Assembly: GCA_964414035.1 (NCBI GenBank)
Contig: CAYPUK010000073.1
Coordinates: 6,399 to 26,398, forward strand
DNA: 20,000 nt
Source: an uncultured Thermoplasmatales archaeon
Lineage (GTDB): Archaea > Thermoplasmatota > E2 > DHVEG-1
Reading direction: 5' to 3'
Under the pieces are notes generated by a model. It was not told the DNA's origin, made no database searches, and saw nothing but the letters and a program-made list of their open reading frames with translations. Made by a program: the position numbers and the translations under genes. Shown here piece after piece: positions 6,407 to 20,000 of this stretch (the stretch's first letter is position 1; the number at the start of each line of letters is the position of its first letter).

Positions 6407-9400
6407 TTAATGCATGAGAATTCCAAGCCCGATTCCTGCAAACCATTGATTATGTTCCCCTGCAATTCCAAAAAACAATTGCGCTGAACCTGATTGAGCA
6501 CCTGATCTCCCATAGACTCCACTTGTTCCAGCTGAAAAACAAAAACCTTCATCAAACTGCCACTGTAATCTTCCAAGATGCAAACATGATGGAAAACGAT
6601 GATTCTCTGAAGAAAAGAGATTCAAATTACTTCCAGATTGGCCCATACCAATGATGAATCCTATTGCATTTGAAAAATCACCTGATGATTCCCAATTGGT
6701 GATATGAACCCAATGTTGATCAGTCCAAGTTTGCCCTGATTCATCAAAAGCCTGAGCGCGAATCATCACATTCGCACCAGCTGAACTCAATTCAGGATCC
6801 AAAGACAATTGATCTTCAATTTCTTCCACATCACAATACCATTCAAAAGGAGGTTCGTTATCAACATATGGCAAACCTTCTCGTTCTCCAAACGGTTCAA
6901 TATCAAACTCTACCCGTTCGATACCCACATTATCTGATGGATTAGATCTTACCCAAAACGGAGTTTCAACTTCCTCTTCATTTGCTGGAGAAGTAATTTC
7001 AACGTAAGGTCGATCTGCATCAATTTTTATTACTCGTCTATTATCAGAAGAAGTTCGGCTTTCGATATTACCCGCATTGTCTGAAGCCCAGAACACAACC
7101 GTCCATTCCCCCATCCAGTTTGAAGACTGTGACGTACTTAACTTTAGACCACTATCAGGATTATACGTTTGCTGTTCTCCATTATTTAAGGTATAATAAA
7201 TCGATTTCACACCACTACCCGTATCCTTAGGATAATCCTCAGCATGCAACCAAAGAATGACACTTTCACTAATGTACCAATCATTTAAACCTTGTATTCC
7301 CTCAATATCTTCAACCGTTGTTTCAGGTGGTTCATCATCCTCTCCAACATAAGAAACACTCCAGTAATCTAAAAATGGTGAGGAAGAAGGATTATTTCGA
7401 TGAAACGTTGCTTTTAAGCGAATCGATGATGATTTAATGTTTTGAATATTTGCTCCAGATGACACATCAGCCATAATCACATCTGTTGGATCATATCCGT
7501 TAACAATATCAAACGTGATATCTCCTTGTTTTTCTGCTTCAAACAGGTGCCAGGATTCCAAATTCGATGGAGTAATCGGTTCTGACATGATCTGACTTGT
7601 TACTACCAGACTGTGCTCCTCACTAACATTATACGTTACCTCTGATCCACTTGGTGTATTAAATGACCAAGTATTTGAATACACATCTGGTAAATTTAAT
7701 GCATTATACGGATCAGGATACTCAACACGAGTATCTTCCCAGGCTACAAAAATGTGATCTCCACTTGAATCAATGTTTGCCCAATCAGCTGGATCTGATT
7801 CTGAATCACTTAATTGAAGAACATATGGATTAACATTCCCTTCTGAGGAAACAAGTTTTCCCCAGATATCTCCTCCACCGTCATAAACCACAAAAAAAGA
7901 AGAACTAAGATGCGGGACTACGTTAGTTCGTTCAAATGCACCATTTGCTATTTTAAACGTGTCAACGACCGTATTTCCATTTTCATCTAAGAGTTTTCCC
8001 CAGATATGACCATACCATTCATTATCACTAATATCATCTTCCTGCCAGGTAATCAAAAACCGTTCGGTTAGATCACAAAACGCAACACACGGAAAATTAT
8101 AATCAACTACAGATGATGCTTGTTGAGAAATAAGGAATTCATCACCTAATGAATCACCATTAATGGTAAATAGCTGCCCCCATATTTCAAAGGGTCCTAG
8201 TTCTGGATCAACGCCTTCTTCCCAAACAATCATGTAATGATTGTTCTTAGCATCTAAAGTAATCCATGGTTCACATTGAGAATTAGGATTATCAGAAATA
8301 ATTTTTTCAGATCCAATTTGATCCCCATTAATATCAAAGAATTTTCCATAGATGTTATAATTACTGGTTCCTTCACGTCCGTCTTCCCAAACCACGAAAA
8401 AACGATGCTGTCCATCATCATAGGACACAACGGGATCAGCTTGATTTCCAGATTCAACACAAATGTCGATGTACTCTACATCAGTGATACTTGTTGCATC
8501 AGCAGCAACTAATGCTCCTTTAATATCTCTACTTAAGTCATCAGATGGGGTATTATAATATTCATATGCTACAAAAAAGAGTTCTGTTGATTCACTTTTA
8601 CCATAGGAAGCAGCAGGATTTTCACAGCGAAACGCTGTTGTTGGGTTTTCATTCCATTCCGTGATATCGAATCTGTTGCCAATTTGTTCTCCCTCCTCAG
8701 AATAAAAGCAACCTCTGATTTGTTGTCGATAGATCATACCTAACGGTAAATAGCGAGGTGTTCCTTCTTCCCAGCTCACAAAGAACCTATCATCCCCCCA
8801 GCAAACATCTGGATCCCACGCACCTTCATTTTCCATATGATATGAAACCTTATGATCATGAGCATAATATTTTTGCCAACTGTTCTCATCAAAAACAGAC
8901 CAGTATTCACTTTCATCGGTAGCAGTTGGATTTCCATAAAAGACACTTATGTTACTTTGTCCCTCAGGCAGAGAAGAGATGCGAAGCCATATGATAGCAT
9001 AAGGGTTATTTGGCTCTGGATTTTTTTCTTCGATCCAATAAGGAAGCCAATAATCATCAGTATTGAATTTGAATCGTAAATCAGCATAATCCGATCTCAT
9101 ATCACTATCATAATCTACGGTGATTTTAATCACTGCATCACTCATCGAAACAGCACTAGTTATTGAAATGATTTTCATCCGAGTCCATGCTGCATCAGTC
9201 CACTGTGGAAAGGTTGCATACATTACCACTTTTCCATCTTCAACCAGATAATGTTCAGAATGAGTATCATCTATTTTTTGAGCATTATCAAACGTATCGT
9301 CCCAGGTGTAATAATTATCGTCGACTGAAACAGTATCAGAAAGATTTTTTGTGGTTTCTTCAACAATATCAGTAGAAATCGAAGATGATTGCATTGCTGA

Positions 9401-9457
9401 AAATAAGAGTAAAACAAGTATTCCACTTGAAATAATTTGCAAAATATGTTTTTTCAT
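6407..9457 (-). CDS. Large secreted protein: DUF2341-like domain + seven propeller-like repeats + two Ig-like domains + Gly/Ser/aromatic-rich C-terminal tail
   Basis: The preferred start is ATG 9457 (MKKHILQIISSGILVLLLFSAMQSS signal peptide), 14 nt after the upstream gene's stop. The longer track ORF (to 9547) would overlap that gene. DUF2341-like: DYADLRFKFNTDDYWLPYWIEEKN..YAIIWLRISSLPEGQSNISVFYGNP. Seven repeats of type FFVVWEDG..NIYGKFFDINGDQIGSEKIIS. Ig-like: LNDWYISESVILWLHAEDYPKDTGSGVKSIYYTLNNG..WTVVFWASDNAGNIE..IKIDADRP. Confidence 0.85.
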   Translation of the reverse strand: MKKHILQIISSGILVLLLFSAMQSSSISTDIVEETTKNLSDTVSVDDNYYTWDDTFDNAQKIDDTHSEHYLVEDGKVVMYATFPQWTDAAWTRMKIISITSAVSMSDAVIKITVDYDSDMRSDYADLRFKFNTDDYWLPYWIEEKNPEPNNPYAIIWLRISSLPEGQSNISVFYGNPTATDESEYWSVFDENSWQKYYAHDHKVSYHMENEGAWDPDVCWGDDRFFVSWEEGTPRYLPLGMIYRQQIRGCFYSEEGEQIGNRFDITEWNENPTTAFRCENPAASYGKSESTELFFVAYEYYNTPSDDLSRDIKGALVAADATSITDVEYIDICVESGNQADPVVSYDDGQHRFFVVWEDGREGTSNYNIYGKFFDINGDQIGSEKIISDNPNSQCEPWITLDAKNNHYMIVWEEGVDPELGPFEIWGQLFTINGDSLGDEFLISQQASSVVDYNFPCVAFCDLTERFLITWQEDDISDNEWYGHIWGKLLDENGNTVVDTFKIANGAFERTNVVPHLSSSFFVVYDGGGDIWGKLVSSEGNVNPYVLQLSDSESDPADWANIDSSGDHIFVAWEDTRVEYPDPYNALNLPDVYSNTWSFNTPSGSEVTYNVSEEHSLVVTSQIMSEPITPSNLESWHLFEAEKQGDITFDIVNGYDPTDVIMADVSSGANIQNIKSSSIRLKATFHRNNPSSSPFLDYWSVSYVGEDDEPPETTVEDIEGIQGLNDWYISESVILWLHAEDYPKDTGSGVKSIYYTLNNGEQQTYNPDSGLKLSTSQSSNWMGEWTVVFWASDNAGNIESRTSSDNRRVIKIDADRPYVEITSPANEEEVETPFWVRSNPSDNVGIERVEFDIEPFGEREGLPYVDNEPPFEWYCDVEEIEDQLSLDPELSSAGANVMIRAQAFDESGQTWTDQHWVHITNWESSGDFSNAIGFIIGMGQSGSNLNLFSSENHRFPSCLHLGRLQWQFDEGFCFSAGTSGVYGRSGAQSGSAQLFFGIAGEHNQWFAGIGLGILMH

Positions 9458-9470
9458 CGTTTTTTTCAAT

Positions 9471-12044
9471 TTACCATTCCTCCACATTTTCATACCATTG
9501 GGTTTCCCCATGTTGATTCGTCCATAACAAATCGACATCAAACTCATCAGTGCTCACTTCATAATCAAGCCAAATATACGGAAGTAACCGGTCACCTTTC
9601 CACCATTCAAGATTAAGATAAAATTGAAGGTTACTCAACGTAATATTTACTCCATATTGATCAAGATAAGTCACATAAAAACTAAAATCTTTGATGATTG
9701 ATCCATCATTATACTTGTTAACCGCAAAATACCCAGGATCAACGCTTCCTTGATCAGATCCTAAGCCTTGTTTTAAATCCCAACTCATGTCAAATTTGAT
9801 AGTTTCTGAAATGGTAATACCGCCACCAAAATCAAAATCAGTACTATTCAATGCAAAATCATTGAAATCAATGGAAAGATCTTCTTCTTGATCAAGTTGA
9901 ATTTGAAAACTTCCTGTTTGACCAATATACCAATCCATATGTAGGTCGGTTGATTTTCCTTGATATTGTAAATTTAAGATTAATCCATCCATGACATCGA
10001 CCATACCACCTAAATGAAGATCATTAATCTTCAAGGAATCTCCACTGGTATCAATATTCCAATCTGCTTGTAAATTATCCGCTGAAATTTGGCTTACTGA
10101 CAGTGATAAGCCATCCCCTGAGACATTATTAGTTACCTCTAAATCCTCACCAAATATTCCCTGAGTAGTATCAAAAAAGAAATGACCATTCTCATCTAAT
10201 TTGAACCGAGTATTGATATGTCCATTTCGGATAGTTAGCACATTATGGATTGAAAATCCTTTATAATCAAGATTAATTTCAACCGGATCAGCTGGCCCTA
10301 GCGACCCTCTCCACATTTCTGCATAACCTTCAAGGTTGTTCCATTGTAATTTAGCCTGAACTTCTGATTCTGCAGGTATTTCAGAAACTTTTACGATTGG
10401 TGTGCTTTCACCAGGAAGAAACGCCTGAATACACGCTACATTGTTACTACAAGTATGTTGAACATTTCCATAAAAATAATTATTTGGATTTTGCAAATCT
10501 GATAAATCAACATTAAGAGTTGCTGCTGCATCTATTCGGATATCAGAGGGCAACCCTTGTGGGACATTCATAAAGATTTGATCTTCAACTTCATCCTCTG
10601 TTTTTGGAAAAAACACATTTATTCCACCAAGTTCAGAACTCATAGAAAGATTAACAAATCCATCTGCATGTGCATAAAAAATTGGACTTGCCACAAAAGA
10701 AAAATCCAAATCCCATGAAATATCAATGTGCTTTGGAAGATGAACAAGTTCAACTTTTTCCTCAAAAAGCGGCGAATTTACAATAACACCTACATCAAAA
10801 ATATGACTTGCATCATATGCAAATTTACCACCCAATAACTCATGATCACCAATAATATCAGTATCAAATTTCATCCACCGACCTGTTTGACCAAGAGTTG
10901 CATCAATTTCATCAAAAACCAAGGTTAACTCAATCTCCTCAGCCACCCCAGATAAAATATTAGATATAAACGTAATTGCGGTTTCACTATTTTGCTGACT
11001 ATCCTCATCAAAATAATAATACAATTGCCCATCTGAAGGAATAAATTTTGTTCTTAAAGACACCGCAGGATTAAATTCAATTGAAAAAGCAATATCATAA
11101 GATGGACTTGTAGAACCCTCCCGATACGCTGAAAAACCATATAACACTTCAAATGCTCCTTTACCCTTTGAAGAACCTGGATCCATCTGATGTTGGAAGA
11201 GACTTGGACCAAATAATTCAGTTCTTGCAATGGAAAAACGTTTTTCTGCATAGCGAGGAATATCCTCTCCCTCGGGAGACCGGTAACCTAGACCTATGAC
11301 AAAATGATCTGAATCAGCAGCAGAAACCAAATCATACCCATCTTCTGAGAAAAGAGTAAAGAATATTTCAAAATGAGTTAAACGATTAATAAACTGATGG
11401 AATCTATGTTCAACTTGAGAAAACTTGCTAAATCTATCCAGCAAAGAATCAAGTAGTGACAAACTATGGACTTGTTTTTTTAGTAAGCCATAATTCACAT
11501 GCAATTCAGACCATACTTGCATGTCCCCATCTTGATCCTGAATGTAATTACCCGTTTCTAATTGACGGACTCTAACTCTTTTTTCTAAGGATTTAACATC
11601 ATTTCCACTTTCATCTTTAATAACAGACCAATAAAAACCAGCGATTACCTCAACATCATTTTCAGAGTCTGCATCAATATCAAAAGAAATTCGTTCACCA
11701 TACTCAGGATGTTTCAAAAATTTATCTTTAAAATCTGAAATGTTAACAGGAACCTGTTTTTCAAAGACCTCATCATTATATTCTATTTGAATCCACCATT
11801 CCAATATGTTTGAATGCTGATTAATCCATGGTAAATCTATGTCAGTAATGTGACGATCATCATCTTGTGTTTGGTAATTTGAAAAAATGGAGGGTATTTC
11901 AGAAAAATCATTCTCGGTACTTTTTACACAAGATTCAATCATCTGAGAATATCCAAGTTTTTCGTTATTTCCATATTGTTCTATACCCGATGTTATGGTG
12001 CAAAAAAAAGATAACGTAATAAATACAACCAGTATCTTTCTCAC
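9471..12044 (-). CDS. Large secreted acidic protein of unknown function (orphan by eye)
   Basis: The track ORF starts at TTG 12065. A perfect SD, GAGGTGAT (12051-12058, minus), sits 6 nt upstream of GTG 12044, which yields a clean signal peptide (M)RKILVVFITLSFFCTITSG. About 857 aa, very D/E/N-rich, with beta-rich degenerate modules containing W-x-[IL]-D-type motifs. No family recognised. Confidence 0.8.
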   Translation of the reverse strand: MRKILVVFITLSFFCTITSGIEQYGNNEKLGYSQMIESCVKSTENDFSEIPSIFSNYQTQDDDRHITDIDLPWINQHSNILEWWIQIEYNDEVFEKQVPVNISDFKDKFLKHPEYGERISFDIDADSENDVEVIAGFYWSVIKDESGNDVKSLEKRVRVRQLETGNYIQDQDGDMQVWSELHVNYGLLKKQVHSLSLLDSLLDRFSKFSQVEHRFHQFINRLTHFEIFFTLFSEDGYDLVSAADSDHFVIGLGYRSPEGEDIPRYAEKRFSIARTELFGPSLFQHQMDPGSSKGKGAFEVLYGFSAYREGSTSPSYDIAFSIEFNPAVSLRTKFIPSDGQLYYYFDEDSQQNSETAITFISNILSGVAEEIELTLVFDEIDATLGQTGRWMKFDTDIIGDHELLGGKFAYDASHIFDVGVIVNSPLFEEKVELVHLPKHIDISWDLDFSFVASPIFYAHADGFVNLSMSSELGGINVFFPKTEDEVEDQIFMNVPQGLPSDIRIDAAATLNVDLSDLQNPNNYFYGNVQHTCSNNVACIQAFLPGESTPIVKVSEIPAESEVQAKLQWNNLEGYAEMWRGSLGPADPVEINLDYKGFSIHNVLTIRNGHINTRFKLDENGHFFFDTTQGIFGEDLEVTNNVSGDGLSLSVSQISADNLQADWNIDTSGDSLKINDLHLGGMVDVMDGLILNLQYQGKSTDLHMDWYIGQTGSFQIQLDQEEDLSIDFNDFALNSTDFDFGGGITISETIKFDMSWDLKQGLGSDQGSVDPGYFAVNKYNDGSIIKDFSFYVTYLDQYGVNITLSNLQFYLNLEWWKGDRLLPYIWLDYEVSTDEFDVDLLWTNQHGETQWYENVEEW

Positions 12045-12050
12045 TTCTCC

Positions 12051-12058
12051 ATCACCTC
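12051..12058 (-). promoter_or_regulatory. Shine-Dalgarno site GAGGTGAT for the 857-aa gene
   Basis: It is complementary to the canonical 16S 3' tail (AUCACCUCC) and lies 6 nt from GTG 12044. Confidence 0.5.
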
Positions 12059-12098
12059 TTTTCAATTCTATTTACATCCTTAATAGTCCTAACACTAT

Positions 12099-12112: not shown

Positions 12113-12423
12113 TTCACTTTAAATTTCAATGAAATGCTACAGAAAAGAAATGTTATGAGGAGTAGGGATTCTGGTTTCTAAATGAAAAAAGGGCAACTTA
12201 AAGGAGGCAAAAATAAATCGTAAGGGGGTGTTGAAACCAGAACCCACAGAGTGTTTTATTTGTCCCACATAAGGAAGATTTGAATTTTCATCGCGATGTT
12301 TAATCATAACCTTCCCTTTTTTCATCTATATAAACAATACCGATATTTATTAATAAAACGTATGAGTGAAATTATGTTCAAAATAGGAAAAATTTAAAAT
12401 CAAAGGAGGCATATGAACAAATA

Positions 12424-13395: not shown

Positions 13396-13482
13396 AAAGT
13401 GGCAATTTTTTATATATGGGGGTAAAATATAATATGTATTCTATCATATTACTAGATAGTTAAGCTAGCGAGATTGCTCAAG

Positions 13483-15816
13483 ATGCGCATATGTAAAATA
13501 TACACTATCCTTAGTTTAATTCTTTGTTTTCTACTTTTATTACCCAGCTTCCAACCTTCCATATTATCAATATTTTTAGAAGAAAAAGGTCAACTGAAGT
13601 TTAAACAACTCCCCAAAACAAACAAAGAGTTGGAAAAAGTTTCAGCGTCAACAGATGAACAATTCAAATATATTATTATCACTCCAACATCCTTTTTAAA
13701 AAGTTTTCAAATTTTACTCAAGCATAAATCACAATATGTAAAATCTACCATAATCACGGTTGAAGAAATCGTAAAAAACGAAAGTTTCTGGGTTAACGGA
13801 CAATATGGTGATGGAACAAGTAGCATCAACGGAAATCCGTTCATTCAACCTGGAGAACAGGTAACAACTAACTATTCAAGATTTAATAATACTGCTGCAA
13901 AAATTAGGAATTTCATCCGATTTGCATATACTAACTGGAAAACACAATTCGTTTTATTAGGAGGAGACACTGAGTTCATACCAAGTAGACATTTTTTTGG
14001 ATATATCCCCAATTGGTCCGCAGGAAAAATTGTCAAACCTATCCAGGCATCAATAATATCTGATCATTATTATGCTGCGCTAAATGGTACGTGGAATAAT
14101 GATTTTGATGATCACTTTGGCGAGGAAGCAACATTTTCAGTAGAGGATGAAGCTGATTTTTCAGCTGAGGTGTGCATTGGCCGGGCACCAGTAAATGATG
14201 CCCACGAGGCCGATATTTTTGTTGATAAGGTAATATCATTTGAAACTAGCGACAAACCAAAAAATGTACAGTTTCATCAATCATATACCAATCCTCAACA
14301 TATACCAGATACAACAAAAGTTACTGAAATGTGTAAGAACTGGATTCCATCAGATTACAAGTTGTTCACTCTTTATGAAAAAGATGGAATTGTAGAGGTC
14401 GATGATTGGAAAGACTCATTTTCAAATCCAGATAAACTCTTATTATTTCACGTTGGAAACGGCTACAACGACGGATTGTATTCTTGGTACCAATTATCAT
14501 GGAATAAACAAAAACGAATAAAATTTAACGTCTTAGACGCTGGAAGTTTGTCAAATTCTTTTTATCCAATTCATATTTCAATCTCATGTCTAACAAGTGA
14601 TTTCAGCGAAAATGAGTGTTTAGCTGAAGAACTCCTCCTCACTCGAAATGGAGGCCCAAGTGCATGTATTGGAAACTCTGAAGTGGGCTGCATCTCACGT
14701 GATGACGCAGGTGCATACTCAGGTGAATTTTTTGAACAGATTTTCAAAAACATCTTCAATGATTCAGAACAACATTTAGGGAAAAATGTTCAACTAGCAA
14801 AAGAATATTTTTCAAATATTGCTAAGTCTGATAGGAAGTATCGATGGTGTTTTTACGAAATCAATTTACTTGGAGATCCTGAAACACCTATCTTTTCAAA
14901 AAGAAAAGTAAATGAAAACAATTCATGTACAGTCATTGTTAATCAAGATTTCAACAAAGAAACCCCTGGTTGGAACAGTACTCATTTCAACAATATTCAA
15001 TTAGCAATCAATCACATCAATCCTTATGGAACTATTATTGTCAAGCCAGGTGTTTACAAAGAGCATCTTTTCATTAACAAAACAATAACACTCAAAGGAT
15101 CAAATAAATCAACAGTCATCTTAACTAATAAACACCATGATAATTCATTACTTCTCCAACTTTCATGTCATTCCACAACAATACAAAATTTTAGTATACT
15201 ATGGAATGAATCAACACAAAAAAACCCGCCTTATGCATTAATTCAAATCTTGCCAAAGTACAATGGCAATACTATTAAAAACATGATAATCCAAGGAAAA
15301 AGCGATTTTGGCATTCTAGTTAGCAACTCAATACGAAACACGATTAAGGGAAACTGGATAATAGAAAATCAAAAGGGAATTGGACTGATCAATAATTTAG
15401 GAGGATTATTTCCATCGCAAGTTATTGTCACTTGCGATAATATTATTTCGAATAATCAAATAGAAAATCAAGAACAATGTGGAATAATCATAGAGGGAAG
15501 CATTCACAATTACATTTTCAATAATACATTTATTATGGATTCAAAAGATGAAAATCTAGAGGAGCAATTGTTTTTTAATCCGTATCTTCAACTAGTCAAT
15601 ACCAAACTAAATGAAATTTATGGTAACTATTGGAATGAACCAAGAGTCAAACCTTATCCAATTCATACATTGAAAGGTCCTATCACAATTTTTTCATTAG
15701 ACCTCTCAAGAGGATTAGTGTTTAAATTATTCAAATGTATCCTCATTCTCAACCTTGGATACCCCGCAACGGTTTTTGATACAACACCATCTCAACACCC
15801 TATTTCTTTTTTGTAA
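13483..15816 (+). CDS. Secreted peptidase C25 (gingipain)-like domain protein fused to a right-handed parallel beta-helix (PbH1/NosD-like) domain
   Basis: ATG 13483 is preferred over TTG 13474 (MRICKIYTILSLILCFLLLLPS signal/anchor). C25 hallmarks: YIIITPTSF..., FVLLGGDTEFIP, SDHYYAALNG, VCIGRAPVNDAHEADIFVDKVISFE, ISISCLTSDF, GGPSACIGNS, INLLGDPETPIF. Beta-helix: GTIIVKPGVYKEHLFINKTITLKGSNKSTVIL plus repeated N-rich turns. Confidence 0.82.
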   Translation: MRICKIYTILSLILCFLLLLPSFQPSILSIFLEEKGQLKFKQLPKTNKELEKVSASTDEQFKYIIITPTSFLKSFQILLKHKSQYVKSTIITVEEIVKNESFWVNGQYGDGTSSINGNPFIQPGEQVTTNYSRFNNTAAKIRNFIRFAYTNWKTQFVLLGGDTEFIPSRHFFGYIPNWSAGKIVKPIQASIISDHYYAALNGTWNNDFDDHFGEEATFSVEDEADFSAEVCIGRAPVNDAHEADIFVDKVISFETSDKPKNVQFHQSYTNPQHIPDTTKVTEMCKNWIPSDYKLFTLYEKDGIVEVDDWKDSFSNPDKLLLFHVGNGYNDGLYSWYQLSWNKQKRIKFNVLDAGSLSNSFYPIHISISCLTSDFSENECLAEELLLTRNGGPSACIGNSEVGCISRDDAGAYSGEFFEQIFKNIFNDSEQHLGKNVQLAKEYFSNIAKSDRKYRWCFYEINLLGDPETPIFSKRKVNENNSCTVIVNQDFNKETPGWNSTHFNNIQLAINHINPYGTIIVKPGVYKEHLFINKTITLKGSNKSTVILTNKHHDNSLLLQLSCHSTTIQNFSILWNESTQKNPPYALIQILPKYNGNTIKNMIIQGKSDFGILVSNSIRNTIKGNWIIENQKGIGLINNLGGLFPSQVIVTCDNIISNNQIENQEQCGIIIEGSIHNYIFNNTFIMDSKDENLEEQLFFNPYLQLVNTKLNEIYGNYWNEPRVKPYPIHTLKGPITIFSLDLSRGLVFKLFKCILILNLGYPATVFDTTPSQHPISFL

Positions 15817-15911: not shown

Positions 15912-17057
15912 ATGAAAAAAATCATTACAAAAATAAAATCAAATCTTCTTCATAAGTGGTGGTTTCAACAACAAGATACTTTTTTTGACCGCATCATTAA
16001 CATACCTGTAAACCTGAGCAATTACCTTCCATCACCTTTAAAAAAGTCATTTGTAACTTCTATTGATACTATTGGACTAGCATTGTTTAGACTTATCCAT
16101 GTGCTCTCATCGATTTTTCAACCATATTACCTTTTTGAAGGATCTGAAAAACTAACATCAAAAAGAATAAAAATCCTTTTTAAAGGCAACCCTAAAAACC
16201 TGCAATTCATCACTAAAAGATTATATCGGGATCCCATTCAGATTACAAAAGTAAATAAAAAACAAGCAAAAAAATGGAAAAGCAAAAAAGGAAAAAAGGA
16301 AAAATTTCATCCTAATGCAGTCATAACCGAATCGGATATATTTTACAGATCATATTTCCAAAAGAAAGGAGGTATCATCATTCCCGAATACGTCACCTTT
16401 CTCCTTGATACAGCAAGATCAATGGATGAAATCATCGATAGAATCTCAAGTGATATAGTTCAGGATCTTCAAAAAGCAAAAAAAACAAATTACACTTTTG
16501 AAGTACGAAATGATTTGGATGCATTTAATTTATTCTATAATAAAATGTATTTACCATATATTAATTGGAAACATAAAAATTCCAATCGAACCGCATCATA
16601 TGCAACCATACAACATCTGCATGCACAGGGAGCAGAAATACTATTTATAAAACACGCTGATGAATATATTTTTGGAGGGATTTTTCACAAAGAAAAAAAC
16701 ATTATGAAAACATATTATGCAGGACTGATGAACAATAAATTTAGTCATTTACATAATGGCATTATGGCCGTATCCTATTATTATTTGATTATCATTGCAA
16801 AGAAAAGATCATGTCAGTTCATAGATTTTGGCACAGCAGGACCATTCACTGATGACGGATTGCACATGTATAAAAACAAATGGAAAATGGACATTATCAA
16901 ATCTCCACCTTATTCTTCAGACATCTTTTCAATAAAAATCTTCAACAAACAAAACATCTTCGACCAATTCATAAATGATCATCCCATTTATTATTTTGAT
17001 GGAGGTAGGTTAAGACTACTAAAAAAAGATTGTTTACCAAGGTCAAAAAAAGCATAA
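15912..17057 (+). CDS. FemAB/CelD/BioF2-like GNAT acyltransferase (Acetyltransf_6-type domain) with unassigned N-terminal region and Lys-rich linker
   Basis: The C-terminal half, FYNKMYLPY...GAEILFIKHADEYIFGGIF...YYAGL...HNGIMAVSYYYLIIIAKKRSCQFIDFGTAGPFTDDGLHMYKNKWKMD, follows the FemAB-like GNAT pattern (..G...a......Y.g......y..i.wA...G....DfG.g....gl..fK..wg). SD GGTGAT lies ~11 nt upstream of the ATG. Confidence 0.75.
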   Translation: MKKIITKIKSNLLHKWWFQQQDTFFDRIINIPVNLSNYLPSPLKKSFVTSIDTIGLALFRLIHVLSSIFQPYYLFEGSEKLTSKRIKILFKGNPKNLQFITKRLYRDPIQITKVNKKQAKKWKSKKGKKEKFHPNAVITESDIFYRSYFQKKGGIIIPEYVTFLLDTARSMDEIIDRISSDIVQDLQKAKKTNYTFEVRNDLDAFNLFYNKMYLPYINWKHKNSNRTASYATIQHLHAQGAEILFIKHADEYIFGGIFHKEKNIMKTYYAGLMNNKFSHLHNGIMAVSYYYLIIIAKKRSCQFIDFGTAGPFTDDGLHMYKNKWKMDIIKSPPYSSDIFSIKIFNKQNIFDQFINDHPIYYFDGGRLRLLKKDCLPRSKKA

Positions 17058-19332: not shown

Positions 19333-19351
19333 AAAAAAAATCTTTAAAAAA
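19333..19351 (-). terminator. Oligo-U tracts just 3' of the 5S rRNA gene (end of rRNA operon)
   Basis: The minus-strand RNA after 5S reads CCUUAUCUUCACUUUUUUAAAGAUUUUUUUUGG, which contains two oligo-U runs within 40 nt of the 5S 3' end. Confidence 0.4.
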
Positions 19352-19362
19352 GTGAAGATAAG

Positions 19363-19598
19363 GATGGTTTGACAGCGTACCAAGAACGACTGAGTTTCAA
19401 ACAGTGAAGTTTACCTTAAAAAACTCCCGAAGGAGTAAATCAAGGCTCTCCACCTAGCTCAGAGGTTCCAGCCCTCTCAGGAGGGTAATCTTCCCATGGG
19501 CTCTCGCACCATAGTAACGAGGATTACGCAGGTAAGCTTAACTGCCGGGTTCGAAATGAGACCGGGTGTTTCCTTACCGCTTTGGCCGTCAAACCATC
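19363..19598 (-). rRNA. rrf: 5S rRNA gene, apparently expanded (~236 nt) by a ~108-nt insertion (19377-19484) between helix V and the 3' strand of helix I
   Basis: The minus-strand core is GAUGGUUUGACGGCCAAAGCGGUAAGGAAACACCCGGUCUCAUUUCGAACCCGGCAGUUAAGCUUACCUGCGUAAUCCUCGUUACUAUGGUGCGAGAGCCCAUGGGAAGAUUAC. It matches the archaeal 5S consensus helix by helix. Helix I closes only with GCUGUCAAACCAUC at 19376->19363. The 5S core identity (19485-19598) is high confidence; the extent including the insert is moderate. Confidence 0.75.
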
Positions 19599-19639
19599 AT
19601 TATGAAATTACATTACATACATAACCTGTCTAACGATTG

Positions 19640-20000
19640 AGCCAGTTAAATGAACGATTAGTAGTTACGGGCTGAACACATCGCCGAAGCTTTGTGCGTA
19701 CACCCTAACTCTATCAAACGAATCTTTTATTCGAGTTCTATGATGCCTCGTCTCGGGGCGGGTTTCATGCTTAGATGCTTTCAGCATTTATCCCTTACAG
19801 CGTGGCTGCCCAGCTCTGCCCTGTCGGACAACTGGTAAACTAGTGGCTGCAGACCCCTGTTCCTCTCGTACTAAGGGGTCTTTCCCGTCAAGCATCAAAC
19901 GCTTCTAGAAGTTAGCAACAAACCTGTCTCACGACGGTCTAAACCCATCTCACGATCCGCTTTAATAGGCGAACAACCTCACCCTTGGCAGCTGCTGCAC
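19640..20000 (-). rRNA. rrl: 23S rRNA, 3'-terminal ~360 nt (gene continues beyond the window); 3' end placed +/-15 nt
   Basis: The minus strand contains the sarcin-ricin loop AGUACGAGAGGAAC (19859-19872), GGAUAAAUGCUGAAAGCAUCUAAGCAUGAAACCCGCCCCGAGA, and the terminal ..GUAACUACUAAUCGUUCA motif. All are universally conserved domain VI sequences. G+C is far above the local background. Confidence 0.93.

Follow-up and report, generated by a model that had tools for sequence, protein, structure and literature searches.

A 236-nt 5S rRNA gene with a structured insert in a Thermoplasmatota archaeon and its probable relationship to the Halococcus insertion

The 20,000-nucleotide (nt) stretch of DNA analysed here, hereafter the window (contig CAYPUK010000073.1 of an uncultured Thermoplasmatales archaeon), carries on its minus strand, from 19598 to 19363, one 5S ribosomal RNA (rRNA) gene of 236 nt with a structured insert of ~105 nt. 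Judged from the alignment of related sequences, both the core of this gene and its insert are under purifying selection with compensatory changes. The gene would be functional and close a 16S-tRNA-23S-5S operon in a Thermoplasmatota archaeon, and the insert would be an expansion segment retained on the central protuberance of the large ribosomal subunit, by analogy with Halococcus; to these two statements jointly we assign a probability of about 0.75. The find adds a new, far larger branch to a known kind of feature and establishes no new category. An initial annotation had proposed a ~236-nt 5S with a ~108-nt structured insertion, rRNA-like in character and not spacer, and this proposal is now supported by covariation, by four assemblies and by promoters and T tracts; the sequences that it named were found at the positions it gave for them.

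Extent and architecture of the expanded 5S gene

The features of the locus are as follows.

19363-19598, minus strand: complete expanded 5S rRNA gene, 236 nt (Rfam core, fold, homologues, four identical assemblies)
19585-19598, minus strand: helix I 5' strand GAUGGUUUGACGGC, partner 19376-19363
19491-19584, minus strand: 5S core with loop A, helices II-III, loop C, loop E, helix IV and loop D (Rfam alignment)
19382-19490, minus strand: expansion segment in the wide sense, ~104-109 nt, boundaries ambiguous by a few nt
19472-19485, minus strand: P1 hairpin CCCUC-CUGA-GAGGG (covariation)
19384-19468, minus strand: long arm P2-P6 (covariation and independent folds of five subtypes), with helices P2 GAAC/GUUC, P3 CUGAG/CUCAG, P4 GGUGGAG/CUUCACU, P5 CCUUGA/UUAAGG and P6 ACUCC-UUCG-GGAGU
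19395-19402, minus strand: 8-nt 3' side GUUUGAAA of an asymmetric internal loop, facing CUA (19457-19455)
19423-19436, minus strand: apical UUCG hairpin P6, covarying in the family
19377-19381, minus strand: GGUAC, by homology the junction-proximal helix V 3' strand, partner GUAAU 19527-19523
19363-19376, minus strand: helix I 3' strand GCUGUCAAACCAUC, homologous to GCUGUCAGCC of canonical relatives
19333-19351, minus strand: T6 and T8 tracts, first T 12 nt beyond the 5S 3' end, a likely archaeal terminator
19638-20000, minus strand: 3' end of an archaeal 23S rRNA gene that runs past the window edge (Rfam LSU_rRNA_archaea, model positions 2622-2987, 356 bits)

Of the 23S gene, the window includes no more than the final 363 nt (20000-19638, minus strand), and a 39-nt spacer separates its 3' end from the 5S gene. 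The 5S core ends at its 3' limit with GGGAA (19495-19491), and the 5' strand of helix V, GUAAU, lies at 19527-19523. Beyond the core follow the parts of the expansion segment, namely GAUUA(C), the hairpin P1 and the long irregular arm P2-P6; 114 nt separate GGGAA from helix I in the window, against 9 nt in canonical relatives and 107-118 nt in the expanded family described below. The G+C content of the insert (0.47) is close to that of the core (0.52) and of the helix I 3' strand (0.50), while the upstream and downstream flanks stand at 0.30 and 0.20, which bears out by measurement the earlier hand count of an insert about half G+C amid AT-rich DNA.

The window 5S scores 73.1 bits with Rfam RF00001, for which the gathering threshold is 38. 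The initial annotation had expected this match to be truncated or split; instead, it extends over the full model (1-120) at 19593-19474, with 3 of 9 helix I pairs non-standard. What Rfam takes for the helix I 3' strand is the first hairpin of the insert, P1, falsely used. Only the distal strand gives a helix I that joins the ends of the molecule, GAUGGUUUGACGGC pairing with GCUGUCAAACCAUC over 14 bp including one G.U. This closure by 19376-19363, as originally read, is present in the minimum-energy structure of the 236-nt RNA, whose folding energy of -97.1 kcal/mol (z = -6.9) was reached by none of 200 shuffles. The weaker closure on GGCUGGAACC, which had been kept in reserve, finds no support, this segment being the 5' strand of a covarying helix of the insert. 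The insert alone matched no Rfam family, giving chance matches only (E >=5.9).

Relatives, transcription units and reality of the sequence

A genome scan with a loop C pattern proved too degenerate, listing at least 120 matches that were mostly bacterial 5S, with 18 archaeal ones among those listed. Among the matches listed were two archaeal metagenome-assembled genomes (MAGs) with the same enlarged 5S, one 5S locus being found for each. The first, labelled Thermoplasmatales (L009), is 84% identical to the window with obvious compensatory changes, and the second, labelled Methanomassiliicoccales (L023), is far richer in G+C and has the layout seen in the window. About ten other Thermoplasmata loci among the matches listed are ordinary 5S genes that end in ...GGGAAGCGCGGAAAGCUGUCAGCC, and the insert is absent from the 5S of these canonical relatives. 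The window core is 78% identical to the canonical Thermoplasmata 5S L001, and the figure for expanded Thermoplasmatota cores is 78-84%.

A metagenome scan with the core and two insert motifs gave at least 120 contigs, with at least 114 distinct sequences carrying the same insert. As the search pattern demanded CTAGGT and GCTGTC, the invariance of these two motifs is forced and uninformative. The expanded family comprises at least five subtypes, ranging from low to high G+C, and several of the metagenome relatives come from sediment samples by their contig names. As a separate observation, at L165:1225-1466 and in L203 a normal expanded-5S 3' half is joined to an unrelated 5' half, the 5' end of L165 coming from a different 5S; both are probably chimeric assemblies of low coverage, with the crossover in the conserved loop C.

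Copies of the window type stand at the end of complete 16S-tRNA-23S-5S operons, after the 23S gene, and the G+C-rich subtypes have stand-alone 5S genes not linked to 23S (L023, L122, L126, L131, L140, L148, L178, L200 and L225). The same insert is found in operon-type and stand-alone copies alike. TATA-like boxes lie ~25-30 nt upstream of the helix I 5' strand in the stand-alone copies, and 101 of 123 loci have four or more consecutive T in the 50 nt downstream, the median distance from the distal helix I strand being 11 nt. With promoters upstream and T tracts after the distal strand, the transcription unit therefore includes the insert.

The identical 236 nt were found in four independently assembled contigs from four samples, reached via a neighbouring MFS transporter protein, and since these assemblies agree base for base the insert is not an assembly error.

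Covariation-supported structure of the insert

The alignment comprised 104 sequences, among them 103 distinct relatives, aligned with MAFFT by sequence alone, and pairs were counted on the minimum-energy structure of the window. For the whole structure, 88.3% of the cells in this alignment are paired, compared to 33-46% with slid 3' partners, 48 pairs vary on both sides, and none of 500 shuffles matches the observed values on any of five measures. The insert taken alone behaves likewise, its 36 pairs being paired in 86.2% of cells (33-53% when slid), with 28 of the 36 showing compensatory changes. Helix I is paired in 90.7% and 7 of its 14 pairs vary on both sides. All four counted pairs of P1 do so, at 97.6% paired, one of them being C-G in 49 sequences and U-A in 49, and an example pair of P4 is G-C in 73 sequences and A-U in 29. 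Homologous loci, whose alignment had been suggested as a check for conservation and compensatory changes, thus display both.

The minimum-energy folds of five subtypes, obtained independently, share a common design despite widely differing G+C: a short P1 and a long arm with a 3-nt x 8-nt asymmetric loop and a tip capped by UUCG or CUUG. The 8-nt side, GUUUGAAA in the window, has the family consensus G-Y-U-Y-K-A-A-M, in which the G and the AA are invariant without being forced by the search pattern. The asymmetric loop is found in all subtypes and also in Halococcus, where its 8-nt side reads GUUACAAC. Within the window subtype, identity amounts to 0.88 for the core, 0.80 for the insert and 0.56 for the downstream flank. 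This alignment yields what is the first covariation-supported prediction of a secondary structure for this expansion segment. A reading of the 3 x 8 loop as a K-turn or sarcin-ricin motif was rejected on inspection, the G+C-rich subtypes carrying UAA where G.A pairs are required.

Two of the three hairpins that had been recognised by eye in the window proved real and covarying: CCUC-CUGA-GAGG, which in its family form is the 5-bp CCCUC/GAGGG of P1 (19485-19472), and ACUCC-UUCG-GGAGU (19436-19423), nested in CCUU/AAGG. The third, ACUG..CAGU, finds no support, its bases being the 3' strands of P4 (CUUCACU, with GGUGGAG) and P3 (CUCAG, with CUGAG) that flank GUUUGAAA.

Insertion site in helix V

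Covariation also bears on where the insert begins and ends. Across the family, the closure GUAAU/GGUAC (columns 75-79 x 239-243) is paired in 88.9% of cells, compared to 22-48% when slid. One of its pairs is A-U in 69 sequences, U-A in 24 and C-G in 4, and the counterparts of GGUAC in other subtypes are GGAAC or GGUGC. In an alignment that includes H. marismortui, GGUAC stands against GGAAA of canonical L001 and GGUUC of Halococcus, and MAFFT places the gap of the canonical 5S within the helix V 3' strand, at GCGCG|GAAAGCUGUC. With the GGUAC closure covarying and the canonical gap inside the helix V 3' strand, the insert would interrupt helix V. The initial annotation had drawn helix V as GUAAUC/GAUUAC, with the insert between helices V and I. 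Closure by GAUUAC (19490-19485) shows 0-2 compensatory changes and 30-60 mismatches per pair across the family, and the aligned sequences favour an insert that sits within the 3' strand of helix V and not between helices V and I.

Relationship to the Halococcus insertion

The 108-nt insertion in Halococcus 5S rRNA was described by Luehrsen et al. 1981 and catalogued together with that of Halalkalicoccus by Stepanov and Fox 2021 (PMC7812874), in whose numbering it occupies position 104.1-105 and according to whom this site permits unhindered expansion. Its site between U104 and G105 corresponds to C108/G109 of H. marismortui, and it forms a four-way junction in the cryo-electron microscopy (cryo-EM) structure (PMC7530397). 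The Halococcus insert is retained in the mature 5S (PMC7812874), where it has been seen by cryo-EM (Tirumalai et al. 2020, PMC7530397), its own structure being stated as not known in that paper.

The 5S of Halococcus dombrowskii (L245; plasmid NZ_CP095007.1, 131238-131467) has 117 nt between GGGAA and helix I, within the 107-118 nt of the new family. The segment starts with a P1 hairpin, CCUCGCAAGAGGG, which has a 13-nt identity to P1 of several family members, and it folds as P1 and an arm with an 8-nt 3' loop (2-3 x 8), co-linear with the new family. Around this loop, GCC-CA-GGAGCG ... CGCUCC-GUUACAAC-GGC of Halococcus corresponds to ACC-UA-GGUACG ... CGUGCC-GUUCUAAC-GGC of L023, and the motifs CCGUUACAACGGC and CCGUUCUAACGGC (CCGUU..AACGGC) each stand 16 nt from the end of the segment. 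The four-way junction predicted here agrees with the cryo-EM description of Halococcus.

A covariance model (R2), built on 36 pairs from per-sequence folds of the new family only, without Halococcus, aligned end to end to exactly 402-518 of L245 with 17.5 bits (E 6e-4 for the locus), and the best full-length chance match in a 192-kb background reached 14.8 bits. This model replaced an earlier one (R1) that had been taken from the RNAalifold consensus of the MAFFT alignment, with 14 pairs. In global alignment of Halococcus to the family z was 2.76, a score reached by 9 of 1000 shuffles (~p = 0.009), while true subtypes gave z of 3.6-3.8. The Halococcus core is 90% identical to that of canonical H. 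marismortui and 63-75% identical to expanded Thermoplasmatota cores, which means that the 5S cores group by taxonomy, the insert being common to both. Taken together, the insert is probably homologous to the 108-nt Halococcus insertion, with moderate support. Halococcus had been named at the outset as a precedent; the comparison now points to a probable relative rather than just a precedent.

Two large Halococcus plasmids, NZ_CP095007.1 and NZ_CP095009.1, were seen to bear an expanded 5S gene. PLSDB, which omits RNA genes, shows no feature at the plasmid 5S, and a BLAST alignment of a canonical 5S ends at query position 105, the start of the insert.

A probably retained expansion segment and its alternatives

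On the preferred reading, transcription would run through the insert to the T tract 12 nt past the gene. Helices II-III, helix IV and loop E would fold first, followed by P1 and then by the ~90-nt arm (P2-P6), after which GGUAC would complete helix V and the last 14 nt would close helix I with the 5' end. The canonical three-way junction would stay intact, and a new four-way junction would presumably arise inside helix V, between the two helix V halves, P1 and the arm. The extra RNA would stay in the mature 5S and, by analogy with Halococcus, project from the central protuberance of the large subunit, with the conserved asymmetric 3 x 8 loop as its likeliest point of contact with a protein or 23S rRNA.

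Some organisms use structured flanks to direct 5S processing, and together with the full-length Rfam alignment at 19593-19474 this might suggest a mature 5S ending near 19474, with everything beyond removed as a structured 3' trailer or processing stem. Such an end would, however, leave a 5S without helix I and without a complete helix V, the helix I drawn by Rfam leaves 3 of 9 positions without a pair and uses covarying P1 as its 3' strand, and the counterpart of the canonical helix I 3' strand (GCUGUCA...) is the distal strand, all of which makes trimming highly improbable. We consider it just as improbable that the expanded copy is a decaying or non-ribosomal paralogue with a normal 5S elsewhere, or an artefact of assembly. 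Some bacteria do carry normal and expanded 5S genes side by side (PMC7812874), and of this genome the comparison covered the window; yet the gene occupies the normal 5S slot of an rRNA operon, purifying selection and compensatory changes are indicated in core and insert, one 5S locus was found per carrier MAG among the matches listed, and against an artefact stand the four identical assemblies. It is also conceivable that the insert is transcribed and then removed, either spliced and religated as an atypical intron or cut out without ligation like bacterial intervening sequences, the latter leaving a fragmented 5S with its 14-nt 3' piece held by helix I. The insert-free product would be a canonical 5S, a 14-bp helix I could hold the fragment, and the lineage does have an rRNA intron. 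The 23S genes of L174 (5942-9559, 3618 nt) and L190 (1997-5618, ~3620 nt) are long in comparison to the 2987-position Rfam model, and the excess in L174 comes from a 631-nt insertion that has a clean bulge-helix-bulge and, at L174:6993-7472 (minus strand), an open reading frame (ORF) for a 159-residue LAGLIDADG_1 endonuclease (Pfam E 2.6e-23). The bulge-helix-bulge scan in its loose form (2-bp flanks) gave 14 chance candidates in the window alone, and it was then tightened and validated on this 23S intron. While this positive control is clean, no conserved bulge-helix-bulge was found at the 5S insert boundaries in 104 sequences, loose candidates occurring in at most 13-22 of the 104 at inconsistent positions and not restoring a 5S. 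The ~105-nt insert contains no ORF, its interior is conserved and covarying in all sampled members, and its six covarying helices and conserved loop across diverse G+C exceed the requirements of a nuclease substrate. Introns and intervening sequences tend to occur sporadically and to vary, and the probable Halococcus homologue is retained in mature RNA (PMC7812874). On this balance removal appears unlikely, though less so than the two preceding alternatives.

Convergence concerns the ancestry of the insert and not its nature, and would mean that two unrelated hairpin-rich insertions arose at one sterically permissive site of archaeal 5S. The site does permit unhindered expansion (Stepanov and Fox, PMC7812874), the sequence-only profile search finds no similarity, pairwise identity is ~58% and the covariance score modest, and the 5S cores follow taxonomy and not the presence of the insert. 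Chance would nevertheless have to produce the same co-linear architecture, with P1 directly at the 5' boundary and then an arm with a 2-3 x 8 loop, similar lengths, a 13-nt identity in P1, CCGUU..AACGGC at 16 nt from the 3' boundary in both, an R2 match that runs from end to end and meets both boundaries exactly (E 6e-4) and a global alignment at ~p = 0.009. Convergence is therefore rather improbable, while being the strongest of the alternatives to a retained segment of shared origin.

Several points weigh against the retained, homologous expansion segment that we prefer. Retention of the insert in this lineage is argued by analogy with Halococcus. The sample of relatives is biased by a search pattern that required CTAGGT and GCTGTC, and the counts are lower bounds; a second, canonical 5S copy is possible in the same genomes. 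Within the insert, the UUCG hairpin and a U6 run (19418-19436, minus strand; U6 19423-19418) were flagged as terminator-like; the U6 run is not conserved, 74 of 123 relatives being without a T run longer than 3 in the insert. In the window itself, GUAAUC/GAUUAC, with six Watson-Crick pairs and the choice of the minimum-energy fold, competes with GUAAU/GGUAC, and as both pairings are possible in this sequence, the insert boundary is ambiguous by ~5 nt and the exact junction uncertain. As for homology, one partial chance match of R2 reached 21.5 bits in the 192-kb background, R1 missed Halococcus at default filters and gave 9.6 bits with filters off, and a sequence-only hidden Markov model of the family (hmmbuild/nhmmer) found no match in the Halococcus insert, so that the case for homology rests on structure, position and short motifs.

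Source and neighbourhood of the window

Regions 13474-15816, 6-2783 and 6407-9547 of the window encode a C25 (gingipain-type) peptidase and large proteins with PKD, Big and DUF2341 domains, a gene content consistent with a protein-degrading sediment archaeon. We take the C25 peptidase to fit descriptions of Marine Benthic Group D. The 381-residue ORF at 15912-17057 had no Pfam match. One of the four samples with the identical 5S, SRR2989655, is sediment of Mahoney Lake, which is saline, sulfidic and meromictic, so that the initial description of the archaeon as non-halophile-looking is only partly right. In the original paper on Mahoney Lake, 16S sequences of Marine Benthic Group D were abundant in that sediment, and circumstantially the source organism would belong to this group.

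Contig L241 stems from the same lake population and matches the window exactly apart from lacking 9786-9813 and 12371-12405. These segments lie in and beside an 864-residue ORF at 9471-12065, which has no Pfam match and for which the gene calls are split differently in L241; the differences look like strain-level indel variation.

Significance and comparison with known expanded rRNAs

A survey published in 2021 placed archaeal 5S expansions in four genera of Halobacteria only and discussed whether they might be an adaptation to saline or thermal anoxic niches (PMC7812874). Part of that survey drew annotated 5S genes longer than 129 nt from RefSeq (PMC7812874), and since automated annotation gives the expanded genes a normal length, this step would miss them. 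Rfam-based annotation yields a normal-looking 120-nt 5S with the wrong 3' end, which renders such genes invisible to length-based surveys. In the literature searched, no earlier report of a 5S insertion in Thermoplasmata was found. The same kind of expansion, and probably the same module, is present in more than 100 distinct sediment metagenome sequences, apparently of Thermoplasmatota, as the two carrier genomes are so labelled, and 5S expansion of this kind is neither rare nor tied to extreme halophily. The model of P1 and arm would explain the four-way junction of the Halococcus cryo-EM structure and can be fitted to that map. A shared insert also raises the question of how a ~105-nt module reached the same site in two phyla. 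Tentatively, and with a probability that we would put below even, it could be an old and transferable rRNA module rather than a haloarchaeal curiosity, common to a large radiation of sediment Thermoplasmatota and a few Halobacteria. Recombination at a common site in helix V would have carried it from one phylum to another, and its conserved asymmetric loop would serve specifically to dock a ribosomal protein, an element of the 23S or another factor on the central protuberance.

Archaeal bulge-helix-bulge/LAGLIDADG introns likewise place extra sequence inside an rRNA gene, with an example in the 23S gene of L174 in the same lineage; unlike them, the 5S insert is without an ORF and without a conserved bulge-helix-bulge, and its structure is kept across the clade. 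As an observation on the same 1.13-Mb contig that bears an expanded 5S, a tRNA match at L178:12235-12344 covers 110 nt compared to a 71-position model, and this tRNA is probably intron-containing. Expanded 5S rRNAs are known from the bacteria Thermoanaerobacterium, Halanaerobiales, Desulfitobacterium and Pseudoalteromonas (PMC7812874), and these resemble the present family in being self-folding modules in an otherwise normal 5S that annotation overlooks. They differ, however, in lying at other sites (helix III bulge, loop C, helix IV and others), in their unrelated sequences of 13-109 nt and in often standing beside normal copies. The supersized expansion segments of Asgard 23S rRNA (Penev et al. 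2020, PMC7594248) are likewise lineage-wide, structured and known from metagenomes of uncultured sediment archaea, but concern the 23S molecule and other sites. An Asgard-like expansion was considered as the cause of the ~3620-nt 23S genes in relatives of the window and was ruled out, L174 having the LAGLIDADG intron.

The closest counterpart is the insertion of Halococcus and Halalkalicoccus, with which the new family shares an intact core and a single insertion of ~100-108 nt, located in the 3' strand of helix V a few nt ahead of helix I. Overall identity to Halococcus is ~58% (pairwise), and it is for Halococcus only that retention in the ribosome has been shown. Unlike Halococcus, the hosts belong to Thermoplasmatota and not to Halobacteria, the genome is AT-rich, and the habitats are anoxic lake, estuarine and other sediments and not salt crystals. 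The diversity of the new family, with its at least five subtypes and at least 114 distinct sequences, is far larger than that of Halococcus.

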